A DNA stretch of 15,119 bases. It comes from Abditibacteriaceae bacterium (GTDB lineage: Bacteria > Armatimonadota > Abditibacteriia > Abditibacteriales > Abditibacteriaceae). How positions within the stretch are numbered: the first letter of the stretch is position 1; each line of letters opens with the position of its first letter. Shown here piece after piece: positions 6,001 through 15,000 of the stretch. The DNA is taken from positions 1 to 15,119 of the forward strand of contig JANPJS010000071.1 of NCBI GenBank assembly GCA_031425655.1. Reading direction: 5' to 3'. Made by a program: the position numbers.

Positions 6001-9000
6001 GAAGCCGGCGTTGAATATCGTAAGGGCGTTTTTCCCTTTCAGGCCAATGGCCGCGCGCGAGCGTTGGCCAATACCGATGGCCGCGTCAAGATTTTAGCCG
6101 ACGCCAAAACCGACCGCATTTTAGGCGTGCATATCATCGGCCCGCGCGCCGGCGATCTCATCGCCGAAGCCGTCGCCGCGATGGAATTTGGCGCCAGTTC
6201 CGAAGACCTCGCGCGCACCTGCCACGCGCATCCGACACTGGCCGAAGCCGTCCACGAAGCCGCGTTAGCTGTTGATGGCAGGCCGATTCATATTTAGCCG
6301 CTCAATCTGCGATTACTCGGAAAAACGCGACTTCTGAAACATGAAACCAAGTATCAATGGTGTTCTGCTTTTGCCGACAATCCTTCTATTCTCAACAATG
6401 AATGGCTGCGAACCTCGTAGAGACACCTTAATTGATCGTTATCCTTCTTTTCCAGATACGGAAACACGAAACGTGGCAAAGAAGATCAAAGCGTCCCAAG
6501 TAACTTCGGTTTCGATTCGAGCCTTCAGTAGGGGCGTCCACCGATCAATCAACATCACCGACCAGCGCGTCATAAAGCAGCTTCTTCTCGGTTTGACTCA
6601 TGCCACCGATACGAACATTCTGAACCAAGTGTCTCATGTGCAGTTGAACGGCTCACGCGGTAGCGTTCTGCTGTGGGAGAATTTTGCGCTCGATGGCCCA
6701 GAGCACGCGCTTAGTCCTGACTTCATCATTGGCCTGAAGCAAGCGGGCGTCATTTTGCCGTGGGAAGAAGCGGCGCGGCGGCGCCAGCAATGGACCTTTG
6801 GAGCGTTAGCCTGTGGCGGTATTCTTCTGCTTGGTTTGCTTCCATTGTGGCTGTTGACGCGGCGGCGCCCGCGAAAACAATTAAAATAGAGCGTTCCATG
6901 CTCCTCCTCGATCTTTCTCTGCCTTTGCCCGCCGAAAACCTCGCGCTGGACGAAGCACTGCTTAACGAATGCGAAAGCGGCGCGTGCGATGAAGTCCTGC
7001 GCTTCTGGCAGACGCCTTCGCCATTTGTGGCTTTAGGCTATGTTTGCAAATGGCGCGACGAAGCCCACGTTGAAGAATGCCAGTCGCGCGGAGTGCCGAT
7101 TTTACGGCGCGCCAGCGGTGGCGGAACGGTTTTGCAAGCGCCCGGCGTGCTGAATTACGCGCTGATTTTACGCATCGAAAACGGCACGCCGACCGAAAAT
7201 CTCACAACGACAAACTGCTTTATTTTGCAGCGCAATCGCGCCGCATTGCAATCGCTGTTGTCCGGCGAAGTTTCGATTCGCGGCACTTCGGATTTGGCGC
7301 TTGGCGACCGCAAGTTTTGCGGCAACGCCCAACGCCGCCGCCAGAAATGGTTACTTTTTCACGGCGCGTTTTTGCTCGATTGCGATCTCGATTTGCTTTC
7401 CTCCGTCTTGCGCCCGCCGCCGCGCCAACCCAATTACCGCGCGCACCGCACGCACGCCGATTTCGTGATGAATCTACACTTGTCGGCAGAGAAAGTCAAA
7501 GCCGCGCTCCGCGAAATTTGGCACGCCGATGCGCCGCTTACCGATTGGCCACGCAACGCTATCGAAACCCTCGTAGCCGAAAAATACGCGCGCGACGAAT
7601 GGATTTTCAAGTTTTAAAGTCCTTCTAACTAACACAATCACCGCAGAGAACGCGGAGGACGCAGAGATTTAATTTTCTCTGCGTCCTCCGCGTTCTCTGC
7701 GGTGAATGTTTCTCAAGCCGCGAAGCCACAGGCCAACAAAAGCGCCTCAATTTCCGCCGGAGTCGCCTCGACTTTGTGCGCGGCGCGGCGCAAATCGTCG
7801 GCGTCTACGGGATACCAGTTGCTGCGGTCGGCGCGTGTCAGGCCGGCGATATTTATCGGTTCGATGGCCTGCAAAATTTGCTCACGCGAGGCGCCATTTT
7901 CGAGGCACGCACGCAGCGCCGGGCCAAAAGTCGGATGATCGTGCATCAAAAATCCGCCGGCAAGATGCGGGCGCTTCAAACGGCGCGCAGTTTCCGCATA
8001 ACTCGCGGCGGCGAAGTAAAGAAGAGACAGCGCCGCGAACTTCTCGAAGTCGTTCATCGAGCGATAAAGTGCGCTAACCATTCGCGCCGTAATTCGCACT
8101 TCGCTTCGGGTTTGCGCGGCGTAATTGTGCAGATTTTTCACCCCGCGCGGCGTGTTCCAATCATGCTCAAAAAACTCGGCCAAGCGCGCAATGCCAAGCA
8201 GCGTCAGCGGAAATCCCGTCGAAAGCAGCGGATCAACGAAGCCCGCCGCCGACGGTAAAAGCGCCCAGTTCTCGCCCGCGATTTGGCCACTGCAAAACGC
8301 CAATCGCGGCGCATACACAAAAGGCTGCGTGGCGCGTGAGCCTTCAAATTGCGCGTTAATCGTCGGAAAGCGCGTCAGTAATCGCTGCCACGCAGCGGCG
8401 CCCTCACGCAAATTTAATTCGTTCGCCAATTCGTCGCGCAATGCGAATCCGGCGCTGGTCAGGCCGTTATTAAAACGCAGAACCCACATCCAGCCGCCGT
8501 CGAAAACGTGATGCAGTGCGGCATCGTCGGCAGGATACGGTGTCGCGGAATTATCGAAAACGCCCATTTCATCCAGCCGCTTCACGCCTTCAAAATGCGA
8601 ATAAAGAGCCTGCGTTGGCGGCAAAACCGGCAACACTTCTTCGCCTAAATTCAGCGCGCGATGCAAAAAGCCGCGCGGGCCGGTGGCGTCTACTAAAAAA
8701 CGCGCGCGACACGCAAAATCTTGTCCTTGCCGCGTGCCGCGAAGCGATACGCCGTCGTCAAAACGCGGCGCTTCCAGCGCGATTCCGTCTCCATATTCGA
8801 CGCCGCAACGCGCGGCTTCTTCGACGAAAAAAGCATCGAAGTCGGGGCGAAACCAATGCGTATCGGCGATGCCGTCGTGCGGGCTGGCCGCAACTAATAA
8901 TTGATCGCGCCGCGCGCCGGAAAATGCTTCGCCCGGCGCGTGATGCAAAAACGTAAAGCCGCGTTTGAGTCCACAGCCGATTTCGGGATAGGACTGCTGC

Positions 9001-12000: not shown

Positions 12001-15000
12001 GCCGCCGTCGCCATCTAACAGGAAGCGCCAATCGGGATAGCGTTCGCGGATGCCCCGGCACAAAGCCAGTCCCATCGCGGCGCATTCGATGTCGAGAGGC
12101 TTGTAATCTTCGACGACGCGCACGGTTTCGCGCGCGTCCATCGCGCTGGCCGCGCCGGTGATTTCTTCGAGAAAAAGACCCAAATCTAAAGCGCGCAAAA
12201 ATTCGCGCGCTTGTTCCAAATCCGGGCCGTCGCCCATGTTCAGCGTAAAGGCTTTGAGACGCGCCGGACTGTGCCCAAGTGTGCGTAAAACGTGATACGT
12301 CGTCAGGAAAACCGCGCCGCTGTCAACGCCGCCCGAAAAACAGATGCCAATCGGCTCGCGTGCAGGAATCGCTTTCACCCATTTGGCGATTTCTTCGGCT
12401 AAGGCGCCGATGTAAGCTTTACCGATAAAGTCCAAGTCGGGCGGCAGCGTGCCGGGCATTGGTTCGAAGAAGCGCGTGTAAACCGGATCAGGGTCGGGAC
12501 AACCGATGAGTTGGATTTCGACGACGTAATGCGCGGGAACCATGCGCGTGTAGCTGGGATGAAATTGGTCACCAAAGCCTGCTTCGTTTAGCCAGTCGCG
12601 GATCGCATCCATGCGGTCGGCGACGATTAAAGCCGGGCCTTCCTGCCGCTTGGCCAGAAAATATCTCAGTGGCCTATCCAGAGAGCGCGCCAGCCGCACG
12701 GTTTTGCCTTCGCGCGCCAACAACGCGAACGAGCCGTCAATAGCGCGCACGGCGTCCGGCGCGCCGCTGAGAATGCGCGCTCGCGCGTCCTCGACGCTCA
12801 TGTTGAAAATGCGGTTGGTGGCGGGATCAGTCAAATCCACCACGCGCTCGATATATTGTTGCATAAATTCCTTTACGTCAGTCGAAGTTTGGGCCGTCCC
12901 GATGGCGGCAGAGGCGGCGGTTCGTCGCGTTGATTCGGGTCGAAGTGTTCAAGATGAATGCTGGGCACATTGACCGTGCTTGGCAGGTCTTCGAGATCGG
13001 CGTAATCGGATTCGTCCCAATCCACCCACACAGCGATGGTGCCGCGCGGCGCATCGTGACGGCTTGATAAAACGCGCCCTGTCAGACCGACCAGAGAAAC
13101 CGTCGGCGAGAGCATGGTGCGCCCGCCAATGACGACTTTATCGTTGAGTTGAAAGCCTCGCACTTCTTGTTTTCTCATAATGCGGCCTTCACCAAACGCG
13201 CGGCGCGGCGCTGCGATTCGGCGCAAATGCGCGGGGCATCCAACGTTGTTAGCACGCCTTTACGAAGCAGAATTTCGCCGTTGACTAAAACCGTATCCAC
13301 GTCACCGGCGCCGGCAGAATAGACAAGATGCGACACCACATTGTGGCGTGGATAAAGGTGCGGTTTGTCGAAATCCACGACGGTAATATCAGCGCGTTTG
13401 CCGACTTCGAGGCTGCCAATGCTGTCGCCAAGATTCAGACAGCGTGCGCCATCGCGCGTGGCCATGAGCAAGGCTTGCTGCGCCGAAATCGCCGTCGGAT
13501 CGCCGCTCGTGCCTTTGTGCAGCAGCGCGGCAAAACGCATTTCCTGCCACATATCGAGCTTGTTGTTGGAAGCGGTGCCGTCCGGGCCAAGCCCAACTTT
13601 GATGCCTGCTTTCAAGTATTCGGAAATCGGCGCGAAGCCGCTGGCGAGCTTCAAATTCGAGGTTGGATTATGCGCCACGCGCATATCGTGGGCGCGCATC
13701 AATTCGATGTCGCCTGCTTCGGGATAAACGCAGTGCGCCGCCAAAAGCGGGCCTTGCATTGCGCCGATGTTGTGCAAAGTTTGAATTGGTGCCGCGCCCC
13801 ATTGCGTTGTCACGTCCGCCACTTCGCGGCGCGTTTCGGCGGCGTGCGTGTGAATCGGCACCTTTAAATCGCGCGCGACTTTGATAATCGCGGCCCATTG
13901 CTCACGGTCGCAAGTGTAAAGCGAGTGCGGCGCCATAAATGGCGTAATACGCCCGTCGCCTGCGCCTTGAAACTCGCGCACAAAAGCGGCGCCTTTGGCG
14001 ATGCGCTGCATCGGTTCGGGTAAAAAGCCCAGCAAAACCGCACCGGGACAAGCGCGAATGCCGCTTTCGAGCATCGCTTGCACGCCTTGCTCGTAGAAAA
14101 AATACATATCGGCGAAGCAAGTCGTGCCGCCGCGCAGCATTTCGGCAATGGCCAGCAGAGTGCCCCAATAAACGTCTTCGGCTTCCAAGTTGGCCTCAAA
14201 AGGCCAGATTTTCTCGCTGAGCCACGGTTCCAGCGCCATATCATCGGCATAGCCGCGCATCAGCGTCATCGCGGCGTGCGTGTGCGTGTTGACCAAGCCG
14301 GGCATGGCCACCAAATGCGCGCCGCCAATGACGGTTTCGGCATCGAAAACGGGCGCGTTTTGCGCCGCGCCAACGTAAGTGATGCGCGAATCTTCGATAT
14401 GAAGCGCGGCGTTTTCGACGACTTCAAAGGCGCCGTTGCAAGTCACGGCGGTGATGGGAGAAAGAGCGATTTTCGACATCGGAAGTTGTTGAATGCCCGC
14501 ATTAAGGATAATGCGAACCCGCAAAAACAGCGAGACAGCCGATTTTTGGCTGTCTCGCGTTGGTTTCGACTGTTACTTCGTCGCGGAAGGCGGCGAAGTG
14601 CCGTCCGTTGAGGCTTTCAAGGCATCGCGGACGCGCTCTTCGGTCGTCGCGCCTGCGATTGCGGCTTCGGCGTGGCTGACTTCAGCGCCTGTCGTATCGG
14701 ATTCGACAACATCGTCGTTGGCCGGTTGGTCGTTGAAATGCGCGCCCTGATTGGGTGCGGTGCCGTCCAAATCCACTAAATTGACTTTCGAGTTGAGCAT
14801 GATAAACCTCCGCCGCATTTTTAGCAGATGGCGCGCCACGATTGCGGCTTACTACCAGGGCAAACGCCTTGCTCCCCAAAGGGCGTTGCTGGCCGGGTAT
14901 TTCAATGCCCAGTGACAGAAATCAGGAGCGATGCCCTTGCCCTGGGCTTACTACCCAACGCCGAGACGATTTATAAAGCAATAGTCCGGTAAGAATCAAA

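Follow-up and report, generated by a model that had tools for sequence, protein, structure and literature searches.

An AsnB-fold amide ligase and a RaSEA-related radical SAM enzyme, with an optional flavin halogenase, form a conserved cassette that probably makes an undiscovered small molecule linked to a giant-protein surface system

Radical SAM enzymes of the RaSEA group are known from tRNA modification: in the available parts of the work cited here, all of the characterized members (RaSEA, MnmL, and YhcC) act on tRNA. In Euryarchaeota, RaSEA (TIGR01210) converts preQ0-Lys to archaeosine (PMC11298593, in part); its partner is ArcS, a TGT-like lysine transferase. YhcC and MnmL/YtqA (TIGR01212) act on tRNA U34 with MnmEG and take a carboxymethyl group off nitrogen, so that an appended amino acid loses its carbon skeleton and its nitrogen stays (bioRxiv 10.64898/2026.05.18.725915, in part). 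Here, we describe a cassette in which a radical SAM enzyme related to this group is encoded together with an AsnB-fold ATP-dependent amide ligase and a flavin-dependent halogenase. Our literature search found no description of such a cassette.

The cassette lies in a window of 15,119 nucleotides, the whole stretch of DNA analyzed, from an Abditibacteriaceae bacterium of the Armatimonadota (contig JANPJS010000071.1, assembly GCA_031425655.1). All three open reading frames were found on the minus strand where the genome-wide survey's note had placed them: the ligase (11545..12864, 439 aa), identified by Pfam Asn_synthase and a structure model, the radical SAM enzyme (9217..10194, 325 aa), and the halogenase (7713..9227, 504 aa), identified by a family profile, the last two overlapping by 11 nt. 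As also reported there, a serpin gene (10208..11419, minus strand; Pfam E 2e-106) interrupts the cassette between ligase and radical SAM genes. The junctions of the serpin are bridged by contigs, and a contig from a separate assembly of the sample that is probably the source covers 7677-13747 with 1 difference. No counterpart of the serpin was clustered in the other cassette loci; it is a passenger outside the conserved unit. Upstream, an amidohydrolase of the MTA/SAH/5'-deoxyadenosine deaminase type and a small ORF (12873..14524, minus strand) were found only in Abditibacteriaceae-type loci (L015/L075, L024, and L025); these family-level neighbors probably share the cassette's transcript here.

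The 24 radical SAM loci of the earlier survey were recovered as the same set. The halogenase count was confirmed (19 of 24), while the ligase was found in 17 loci rather than 16 and all three genes in 14 rather than 13; 13 loci hold the three genes in order. In a wider set of 78 ligase loci, 71 contained the radical SAM gene and 50 all three genes. Of 201 phylum genomes, 31 carry the ligase, and the radical SAM enzyme is found in exactly these 31 (previously 11 of 60 for the latter); the halogenase is present in 30 of them plus one other, and this co-occurrence extends to genomes in which the genes are not linked. Across 48 loci, pairwise identities are also correlated among the three proteins (rho 0.62-0.81), and the three genes very likely serve a single pathway. 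The halogenase is absent from 21 of the 71 loci with ligase and radical SAM genes; 4 of these 21 end at a contig edge, and a whole-genome search of three genomes with such loci found it in none. Between loci with and without the halogenase, the ligase differs at 2 conserved positions and the radical SAM enzyme at 0. The core of the unit is the ligase and the radical SAM enzyme, with the halogenase as an optional member. Because 15 of the loci without it are from Bacteroidota, the product is not necessarily halogenated; of the proposed undescribed pathway for a halogenated metabolite, the conserved, undescribed unit of three enzyme types stands, but obligate halogenation does not.

The cassette is single-copy and occurs in about 8-20% of the genomes per sampled group (31/201, 14/71, and 12/151). 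It spans six or more phyla whose members are poorly represented in culture, in soil and sediment groups; the genomes sampled included two cultured carriers, Dyadobacter luticola T17 and Thalassoglobus neptunius KOR42.

The best family match of the radical SAM enzyme is RaSEA: its residues 37-263 aligned to TIGR01210, as had been noted, below the cut-off (E 3.2e-33, 115 bits against 212), whereas TIGR01212 reached only E 0.01. A PF04055 score of 34.5 bits (cut-off 29.5) and the C61-x3-C65-x2-C68 motif for [4Fe-4S]/SAM (9991..10014, minus strand), invariant in 77/77 sequences as claimed before, place the enzyme in the radical SAM superfamily. Four C-terminal cysteines (C292, C295, C318, and C321; 9232..9321, minus strand), at least 90% conserved, form a putative second metal site; in an alignment, C292, C295, and a later cysteine are also present in RaSEA-like relatives. 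In a quick tree with long branches that included no above-cut-off RaSEA, the cassette enzymes formed their own clade (SH-aLRT 98), apart from archaeal relatives scoring 190 bits. Other RaSEA-like genes are located in small-molecule clusters, beside an NRPS gene, P450/glycosyltransferase genes, or a DHDPS-like gene.

Only the synthetase part of the ligase aligned to Pfam Asn_synthase (E 1e-12). Its structure model (pLDDT 89.5, against 84 earlier) matched beta-lactam synthetase, asparagine synthetase, and CarA in a fold search, in which beta-lactam synthetase did rank first (E 1.0e-12), but with human asparagine synthetase nearly tied (2.4e-12). The description of the ligase as specifically beta-lactam-synthetase-like was not borne out, and membership in that family was rejected: the sequence profile retrieves asparagine synthetases alone (ASNS and AsnB), the fold ranks are tied, and no clavam or carbapenem genes are among the recurring neighbors. 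With asparagine synthetase B/human ASNS, beta-lactam synthetase, CarA, and TsnB9, the ligase has in common the two-domain fold and ATP-pyrophosphatase motifs (TM about 0.54-0.67, 11-18% identity). These comprise a PP-loop, SGGxDS (residues 177-182; 12319..12336, minus strand), which aligns with SGGLDS of Escherichia coli AsnB and is predicted to bind the pyrophosphate of ATP, along with GxGxDE and a late Lys/Arg motif, features of the AsnB-fold ATP amide ligases. Unlike these relatives, it is coupled to a radical SAM enzyme. As the survey had it, the ligase lacks the catalytic N-terminal cysteine: no cysteine occurs in the first 5 residues of 84/84 homologs, with start codons called by script. 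A glutamine-hydrolyzing asparagine synthetase B was rejected on this ground and on a TIGR01536 score of 45 bits (cut-off 267). The N-terminal domain is strongly conserved and non-glutaminase, and carries a new motif, G121-C122-P-D-P125 (12490..12504, minus strand), invariant in 84/84 sequences and absent in the distant homologs P0129, P0136, P0153, P0176, P0185, P0186, P0210, P0238, and P0239. While the ATP motifs are retained, T322-T323-x-R325 of AsnB, which has a role in aspartate activation, is replaced by L257-D258-x-E/Q260. This pocket change does not single out lysine as the donor, because it is also found in distant homologs, two of them from genomes without a close radical SAM match. 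Identity of the ligase across phyla is high, as described, but ranges over 57-81% rather than 64-79%.

Among solved structures, the best matches of the halogenase family profile were PltM, a phloroglucinol halogenase (E 4e-84), and CtcP, the tetracycline 7-halogenase (2e-77), at about 30-33% identity. GxGxxG, the predicted catalytic Lys88 (8964..8966, minus strand), W246-x-W248-x-L (8478..8492, minus strand), and FxDPxxSxG indicate an enzyme of the PltM/CtcP type. The motifs had been called invariant, which is true of Lys88 (57/57) and W246, but GxGxxG and WxWxL as a whole, including W248 and L250, are only at least 90% conserved. The latter reads WxWxL(R/K/Q)F, here WxWxLRF, a variant of the WxWxIP motif. 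Of the PltM pocket, K87, P48, and F90 are retained as K88, P49, and F91, and the K87A variant of PltM is inactive (PMC6424973, in part). The substrate should differ from that of PltM, because Glu49 is replaced by leucine and the C-terminal pocket residues differ; in contrast to PltM and CtcP, no PKS or NRPS is encoded nearby.

As a tentative best explanation of the whole, we propose that the enzymes of the cassette work in the cytoplasm to make one small molecule, and that their pathway is functionally tied to an exported system of beta-propeller proteins. Judged by its homology, the ligase would adenylate a carboxylate and join an amine to it as an amide, the amine being most likely an amino acid and not glutamine-derived ammonia. 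The radical SAM enzyme, by analogy with RaSEA and MnmL/YhcC on tRNA, would then cut the appended residue at its C-N bond, so that its nitrogen is left behind. Where present, the halogenase, whose class is well supported, would put Cl or Br on a presumed electron-rich aromatic ring as optional tailoring. Co-occurrence suggests that the exported system may use the product as a cofactor, ligand, or signal. Of the ligation of lysine followed by cleavage that had been suggested before, ligate-then-cleave amidation is reasonable from the radical SAM family, and we regard it as plausible if rather doubtful; nothing tested favors lysine, which is an improbable donor.

The same exported system could also be served by a small molecule made through other chemistry, with the radical SAM enzyme performing C-C or C-N coupling, ring closure, or decarboxylation, and the ligase closing an intramolecular lactam or using free ammonia. 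Beta-lactam synthetase and CarA, which rank first or close to it in the fold search, are likewise cysteine-less and take their amine from within the substrate, and the radical SAM enzyme, at about half of the RaSEA cut-off score, forms its own clade. We nevertheless consider this unlikely, as the nearest characterized relatives are N-dealkylating enzymes in the parts of the literature cited above, and the radical SAM enzyme is almost always paired with an amide ligase, which mirrors the logic of ArcS-RaSEA.

Contrary to the view that no other gene recurs widely, FG-GAP/ASPIC-UnbV propeller genes were found in 40 of 99 loci. Across three phyla, a giant TPR-propeller protein is encoded in 56 of 57 ligase-positive genomes (30/31, 14/14, and 12/12 by group) whereas of 307 genomes that lack the giant protein, just 1 has the ligase (1/163, 0/53, and 0/91), counts that are overstated by kinship among the genomes and that a shared lifestyle could partly yield. 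The giant protein does not depend on the cassette, as it is often present without it (8/38, 4/18, and, in Acidobacteriota, 48/60 giant-positive genomes). The exported system would comprise the giant protein (TPR/FG-GAP/UnbV) and, in many cases, a UnbV protein resembling E4 and an RnfD-type membrane protein resembling E5. A functional tie between cassette and propeller system appears somewhat more probable than its absence. Were the cassette instead a stand-alone one for a secondary metabolite (an antibiotic or signal), its association with propellers would reflect shared ecology or transfer; the large numbers of UnbV genes that these phyla carry, with as many as 23 matches in one genome, and the many giant genes without a cassette would fit. 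This is distinctly improbable, however: within the single genus g4, UnbV matches track the radical SAM gene (9, 1, 5, and 6 in positive genomes; 0, 3, 0, 0, 0, and 1 in negative ones), propeller genes physically adjoin the cassette in Acidobacteriota, Verrucomicrobiota, Planctomycetota, Bacteroidota, Gemmatimonadota, and genome G182, and neither transporter nor resistance genes are widespread among cassette neighbors. No scaffold-making gene recurs near the cassettes either.

In the genome studied here, the giant gene adjoins counterparts of enediyne E4 and E5, genes that reportedly play a role in cryptic iodination. This pair, on contig C215, gave the genome's best matches, at E 2e-45 for E4 (next 2e-16) and at E 2e-14 for E5. 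The two genes are ordered like E4 (CRTAC1/UnbV) and E5 (RnfD-like/UnbU) of Streptomyces globisporus C-1027; unlike in the enediyne cassette, the giant gene comes first. An enediyne PKS cassette was rejected, since the genome yielded no match to DUF1702 (E3) at E 1e-5 and no full match to the enediyne PKS, whose first 900 residues gave partial matches only (28-34%). Of 5 Bacteroidota genomes with the cassette, 4 yielded no E5-like gene. Bacteroidota cassettes sit in the operons of CRTAC1, HZS-like, and binding-protein genes that belong to clade III of the hydrazine-synthase homolog clusters (PMC12758564), but HZS-like genes occur in 2 cassette loci and most show none. The main text of that study does not contain "radical SAM," "asparagine," or "halogenase."

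The nested co-occurrence would also be expected if the enzymes modified a protein, either the giant/UnbV proteins or the GCPDP loop of the ligase itself, to yield a protein-derived cofactor as with QhpD/QhpG or LodB. A highly conserved GSCP motif in the C-terminal domain of the giant protein, the invariant Cys122 of the ligase, and QhpG as the best NCBIfam match of the halogenase (E 8e-21, far below cut-off) point in this direction. Still, we hold it improbable: the solved structures matched are halogenases of free substrates with a catalytic lysine, the peptidyl tryptophan dihydroxylase entry 7ctq reached only 5e-6, and the putative targets bear Sec-type or membrane-anchor N-termini, as judged by eye. 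Nor did a precursor peptide recur among 1214 short ORFs near cassettes, where recurring ORFs were pieces or shadows of neighboring genes. A lasso-peptide or other RiPP cyclase system was rejected, as there was no conserved precursor among these ORFs and no RRE or leader peptidase family among annotated neighbors.

Archaeosine synthesis was rejected, with the radical SAM enzyme below the RaSEA cut-off and no ArcS in the genome: PF17884 had no match in this 97% complete genome, while 3 archaeal controls were positive. The one TIGR00432 (ArcTGT) match scored 163 bits against a cut-off of 350. A two-step logic as in ArcS-RaSEA is conceivable, given a homologous radical SAM enzyme and a partner able to attach an amine donor, but here the partner is an AsnB-fold ligase, the host is bacterial, a halogenase is added, and the substrate is probably not tRNA. 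Modification of a bacterial tRNA or nucleoside, archaeosine-like or of another base, is very unlikely: the tRNA-acting relatives and the genome's own QueC and Tgt would fit, but QueC is below cut-off in cassette genome G201, no que or tgt genes are among the recurring neighbors, presence is patchy within genera, and the halogenase and the linkage to exported proteins would go unexplained. The product is more likely a small molecule than a modified RNA or protein.

In its most specific form, our proposal would have the cassette supply a new, optionally halogenated cofactor or ligand to a widespread family of exported FG-GAP/UnbV propellers and their RnfD-like membrane partner, as pqq genes serve quinoproteins, through a bacterial ligate-then-radical-cleave nitrogen transfer in which an AsnB-fold ligase replaces ArcS; this we put forward as speculative and quite unlikely. 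Because the cassette is found almost only in genomes with the giant cell-surface protein, it probably makes an undiscovered small molecule linked to that surface system, and through this nested association, what the giant/E4/E5 propeller proteins do can be put to the test. If the chemistry holds, RaSEA-type radical C-N cleavage would be extended from tRNA to small-molecule biosynthesis, and a new clade of PltM-type halogenases would be added. If the propellers do receive a cofactor from the cassette, a large family of surface proteins that lack annotation in soil bacteria would gain a function, and there would be a clue to the role of enediyne E4 and E5.

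The cassette lies in a minus-strand row of genes that converges with a plus-strand sucA-sucB-lpd-lplA-type block, in which sucA, sucB, and lpd were identified by reading the translations. From its 5' end, the row consists of an amidohydrolase gene (13175-14524), a small ORF, the ligase gene (11545-12864), and a serpin gene (10208-11419); next comes the radical SAM gene (9217-10194), whose last 11 nt are shared with the flavoprotein (halogenase) gene (7713-9227). An independent assembly, probably of the source sample, has a contig that covers 7677-13747 with a single mismatch, which rules out faulty scaffolding as the origin of the serpin insertion; no long repeat was found in the flanks searched around it. 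The junction between the ligase and radical SAM genes is unstable in this genus (window 10208-11419; loci L025 and L002/L160), in that a serpin interrupts it here and genome G019 carries the ligase on one contig and the radical SAM-halogenase pair on another, with different neighbors. A strong 13-pair hairpin with a terminator-like score on both strands is located at 14530-14558, just upstream of the amidohydrolase ORF. Promoter-like sites in the window did not exceed chance level, no enriched 8-mer was found across 85 upstream regions, and a riboswitch search over 19 sources returned only tRNAs. No RNA runs were found among the public runs listed as containing the stretch, and small-share runs were uninformative on habitat.

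A recount reproduced the 24 radical SAM loci reported in the genome-wide survey's note, and the halogenase in 19 of them; its ligase and three-gene counts were close to ours, which were 17 and 14 of 24, respectively, with 13 in order. Among 78 ligase loci, the radical SAM gene was present in 71 and all three genes in 50. The 21 loci with only the first two genes included 4 that reach a contig edge, 15 from Bacteroidota, and 2 from other phyla. More than 3.5 kb extends beyond the radical SAM gene in 12 of these 15 Bacteroidota loci, and whole-genome searches with two positive controls detected no family halogenase in any of three such genomes. Compared with their halogenase-linked counterparts, the ligases differ at 2 conserved positions and the radical SAM enzymes at none, so that halogenation looks like optional tailoring. 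The core of the unit is two genes, encoding the ligase and the radical SAM enzyme.

The same joint inheritance was seen across 201 genomes of this phylum, in which the radical SAM profile gave 60 matches at E 0.001; removal of 28 weak generic matches (E 5e-8 or worse) and the distant homolog in G147 left 31. Exactly these 31 genomes contain the ligase, and 30 of them, plus G091, the halogenase; genomes with split cassettes (e.g., G012, G019, G022, G026, and G191) still retain all three genes. Oxygen alone was rejected as the cause of halogenase loss, as Roseivirgaceae and Cyclobacteriaceae loci, given the lifestyles we assume for these families, lack the gene too. A chorismatase is a weak candidate for a substitute: an FkbO/Hyg5-like gene was found in 1 locus, and only Bacteroidota operons had a Rid-like gene (6 loci) or one for DAHP synthase (7 loci). 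In six Acidobacteriota loci (L067, L069, L070, L072, L094, and L097), the cassette is adjoined by a sulfonate/nitrate-type ABC transporter and a heavy-metal-binding protein, and in five of these by DUF169 as well.

Sequences and models both indicate an AsnB-fold ligase that has lost its glutaminase activity. The Pfam match covers the synthetase half only, and with start codons assigned by script, none of 84 homologs has a cysteine within the first five residues. The former glutaminase domain, in which GCPDP is invariant, has a mean column conservation of 0.77 versus 0.76 for the synthetase domain. At 11-18% identity throughout, the matches of a structural model (pLDDT 89.5, built with 84 sequences) comprised beta-lactam synthetase at E 1.0e-12 and human asparagine synthetase at 2.4e-12, together with E. 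coli AsnB, CarA, and TsnB9. Single-sequence PDB searches with the ligase and the radical SAM enzyme gave no significant match. When the ligase family profile was run against solved structures, it retrieved ASNS and AsnB and nothing else, so the survey's label of beta-lactam-synthetase-like is too specific. In the alignment, ETYDVTTIRA of AsnB pairs with EDYKPLDIECA of the ligase, changing T322-T323-x-R325 to L-D-x-E/Q; since we take these residues to be needed for aspartate activation, this implies that the ligase would use another acid.

Distant homologs without the cysteine (L170:8001-9446, P0153, P0186, P0129, and P0238) include proteins from Nanoarchaeota and Berkelbacteria. Of 11 distant full-length homologs read, 9 lack GCPDP, two of them labeled Nanoarchaeota and Berkelbacteria. 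Neither of two genomes tested held a close TIGR01210 match, and the one context read showed a divergent regulator-like gene and no radical SAM neighbor; GCPDP therefore seems to mark the radical SAM-coupled clade, in what is thin sampling. A search for loci of P0238 found none, and a ligase search of plasmids gave no match.

The radical SAM enzyme has an invariant CxxxCxxC motif (77/77) and four C-terminal cysteines conserved at at least 90%. It scores 115 bits against the RaSEA model TIGR01210 (cut-off 212), and its remaining NCBIfam matches, MnmL/YtqA included, have E-values of 0.007-0.035; an Atlas search returned its own family, and its median pI of 6.2 was uninformative. In a quick tree of 41 rows, which contains no RaSEA above cut-off and whose deep order is unsure owing to long branches, cassette enzymes formed one clade (SH-aLRT 98), with Nanoarchaeota RaSEA-like proteins (190 bits), an NRPS-linked homolog, and a Streptomyces plasmid homolog outside it. 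The Nanoarchaeota genes (L173 and L174, in G530 and G549) share a short operon with genes for DUF6190 and a DHDPS-family protein; the second (L144:4221-10189, G147) lies directly 3' of a single-module NRPS and 5' of a B3/4-domain gene; and the third (L143:14680-25826, Streptomyces sp. FR1 plasmid pFRL3) is followed by genes for a P450, SHMT, glycosyltransferase, carbamoyltransferase, and heptose adenylyltransferase. These contexts show that the RaSEA-like group has repeatedly been recruited into small-molecule clusters. The radical SAM gene of L023, split over two ORFs yet placed inside the family clade, is more likely frameshifted than a divergent paralog. With RaSEA as the nearest model and a score below its cut-off, chemistry other than RaSEA-type cleavage is an unlikely reading that keeps some weight. 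A ligase-radical SAM complex prediction (score 0.00, mark 0.32) speaks neither for nor against a complex.

The closest solved relatives of the halogenase are PltM (E 4e-84) and CtcP (2e-77). Its K88, invariant in 57/57 sequences, aligns with K87 of PltM, whose alanine mutant is inactive according to the available text of PMC6424973. Pocket residues P48 and F90 of PltM are retained, E49 is replaced by Leu, and W400 corresponds to the invariant Y404 in an alignment read by eye. We infer that the substrate is probably a small electron-rich aromatic other than phloroglucinol. The window's genome encodes a second, distant flavin halogenase-like protein (C312:52135-53445; 436 aa, WFWHIP motif, 24% identity to the cassette enzyme).

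The survey's note overlooked a recurring partner: of 99 loci, 40 contain FG-GAP/ASPIC-UnbV genes, a count from which two duplicates were taken out and in which several loci share a genome. Among the 201 phylum genomes, UnbV matches were found in all 31 with the cassette (at least 4 in 29), and the cassette in none of 121 UnbV-free genomes; five UnbV-rich, radical SAM-negative genomes had no ligase match. In the window's genome, the gene for a giant exported propeller protein (C215:150-3563) is followed by two more, the first encoding an UnbV protein of 602 aa and the second an RnfD-like membrane protein of 306 aa. The C-terminal domain of the giant occurs in 38/201 phylum genomes, including 30/31 with the cassette; the remaining one is 86% complete. 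All ligase-positive genomes fall within the giant-positive set in a Bacteroidales family (ligase 14/71, giant 18/71) and in Acidobacteriota (12/151 and 60/151; 11/148 and 57/148, with nesting kept, without G297, G322, and G420, flagged as unpublished). Pooled over the three groups, the giant is present in 56/57 ligase-positive genomes and the ligase in 1/307 giant-negative ones, an association inflated by kinship. The relation runs in one direction, since of the 116 genomes with the giant, 60 have no ligase. A chance association between cassette and propeller proteins appears quite improbable.

RnfD-like genes were found in 32/201 phylum genomes, including 27/31 with the cassette (one weak), and not in 4 of 5 Bacteroidota genomes searched. 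On the C-1027 plasmid, CRTAC1-family and RnfD-like genes, which we take to be E4/UnbV and E5/UnbU, precede a polyketide synthase, and the C215 pair are their best matches in the window's genome (E 2e-45 and 2e-14). Bacteroidota cassettes sit within the hydrazine-synthase-homolog operons of PMC12758564, whose main text, as far as available, mentions the CRTAC1 gene and, by the terms looked for, none of the three cassette enzymes.

The C-terminal 438 residues of the giant (model pLDDT 91.9) had no Pfam match and only hypothetical proteins in the Atlas clusters found; residues 49-263 matched only carbohydrate-binding-module-like jelly rolls (best Z 8.9, rmsd 3.1, 123 aligned). In ligase-negative Acidobacteriota, many giant matches start at profile position 8-9, past a conserved GSCP motif, whereas a copy starting at position 1-4 is present in each of the 12 ligase-positive genomes. 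Of the 9 full-length ASPIC/UnbV genes of the window's genome, 7 have a prepilin-type gene (with the motif FTLIELLVVIAII) no more than ~2 kb away (contigs C263, C34, C120, C187, C1, and C46); the giant and its E4-like neighbor on C215 account for the other 2. Just downstream of a full UnbV gene, C34:8867-9001 carries a fragment that matches the last part of the UnbV domain. Protein modification by the cassette enzymes is very unlikely.

Archaeosine is formed from preQ0-Lys by RaSEA acting in a complex with ArcS (PMC11298593; PMC7694415, available text), and YhcC and MnmL are described as converting cmnm5U to nm5U (bioRxiv 10.64898/2026.05.18.725915, available text). The window's genome has no ArcS domain and a single Tgt scoring far below the ArcTGT cut-off, so the pathway is not archaeosine synthesis, and tRNA modification, for which these relatives would speak, is the least probable reading.

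Sequences and models show which classes the three enzymes belong to and that their catalytic motifs are intact. We tentatively favor a ligate-then-cleave small-molecule pathway serving the exported system, as a possible reading somewhat short of an even chance. The ligase would amidate an acid with an amino-acid-type amine, the radical SAM enzyme would remove the carbon skeleton of the appended residue, the halogenase would decorate an aromatic ring, and the product may serve the exported system; lysine, which analogy would suggest, is an improbable candidate for the amine donor. The ammosamide cluster likewise combines an asparagine-synthase-like gene with a halogenase, and differs in its PEARL enzymes and Trp-type halogenase (bioRxiv 10.1101/2025.09.03.674030, available text). 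No description of the cassette was found in full-text literature covering few subscription papers and judged at listing or abstract level. While the logic of a ligase and a radical C-N lyase is known, the ligase fold and the context are new, making this a conserved, testable cassette that is undescribed in the literature searched.
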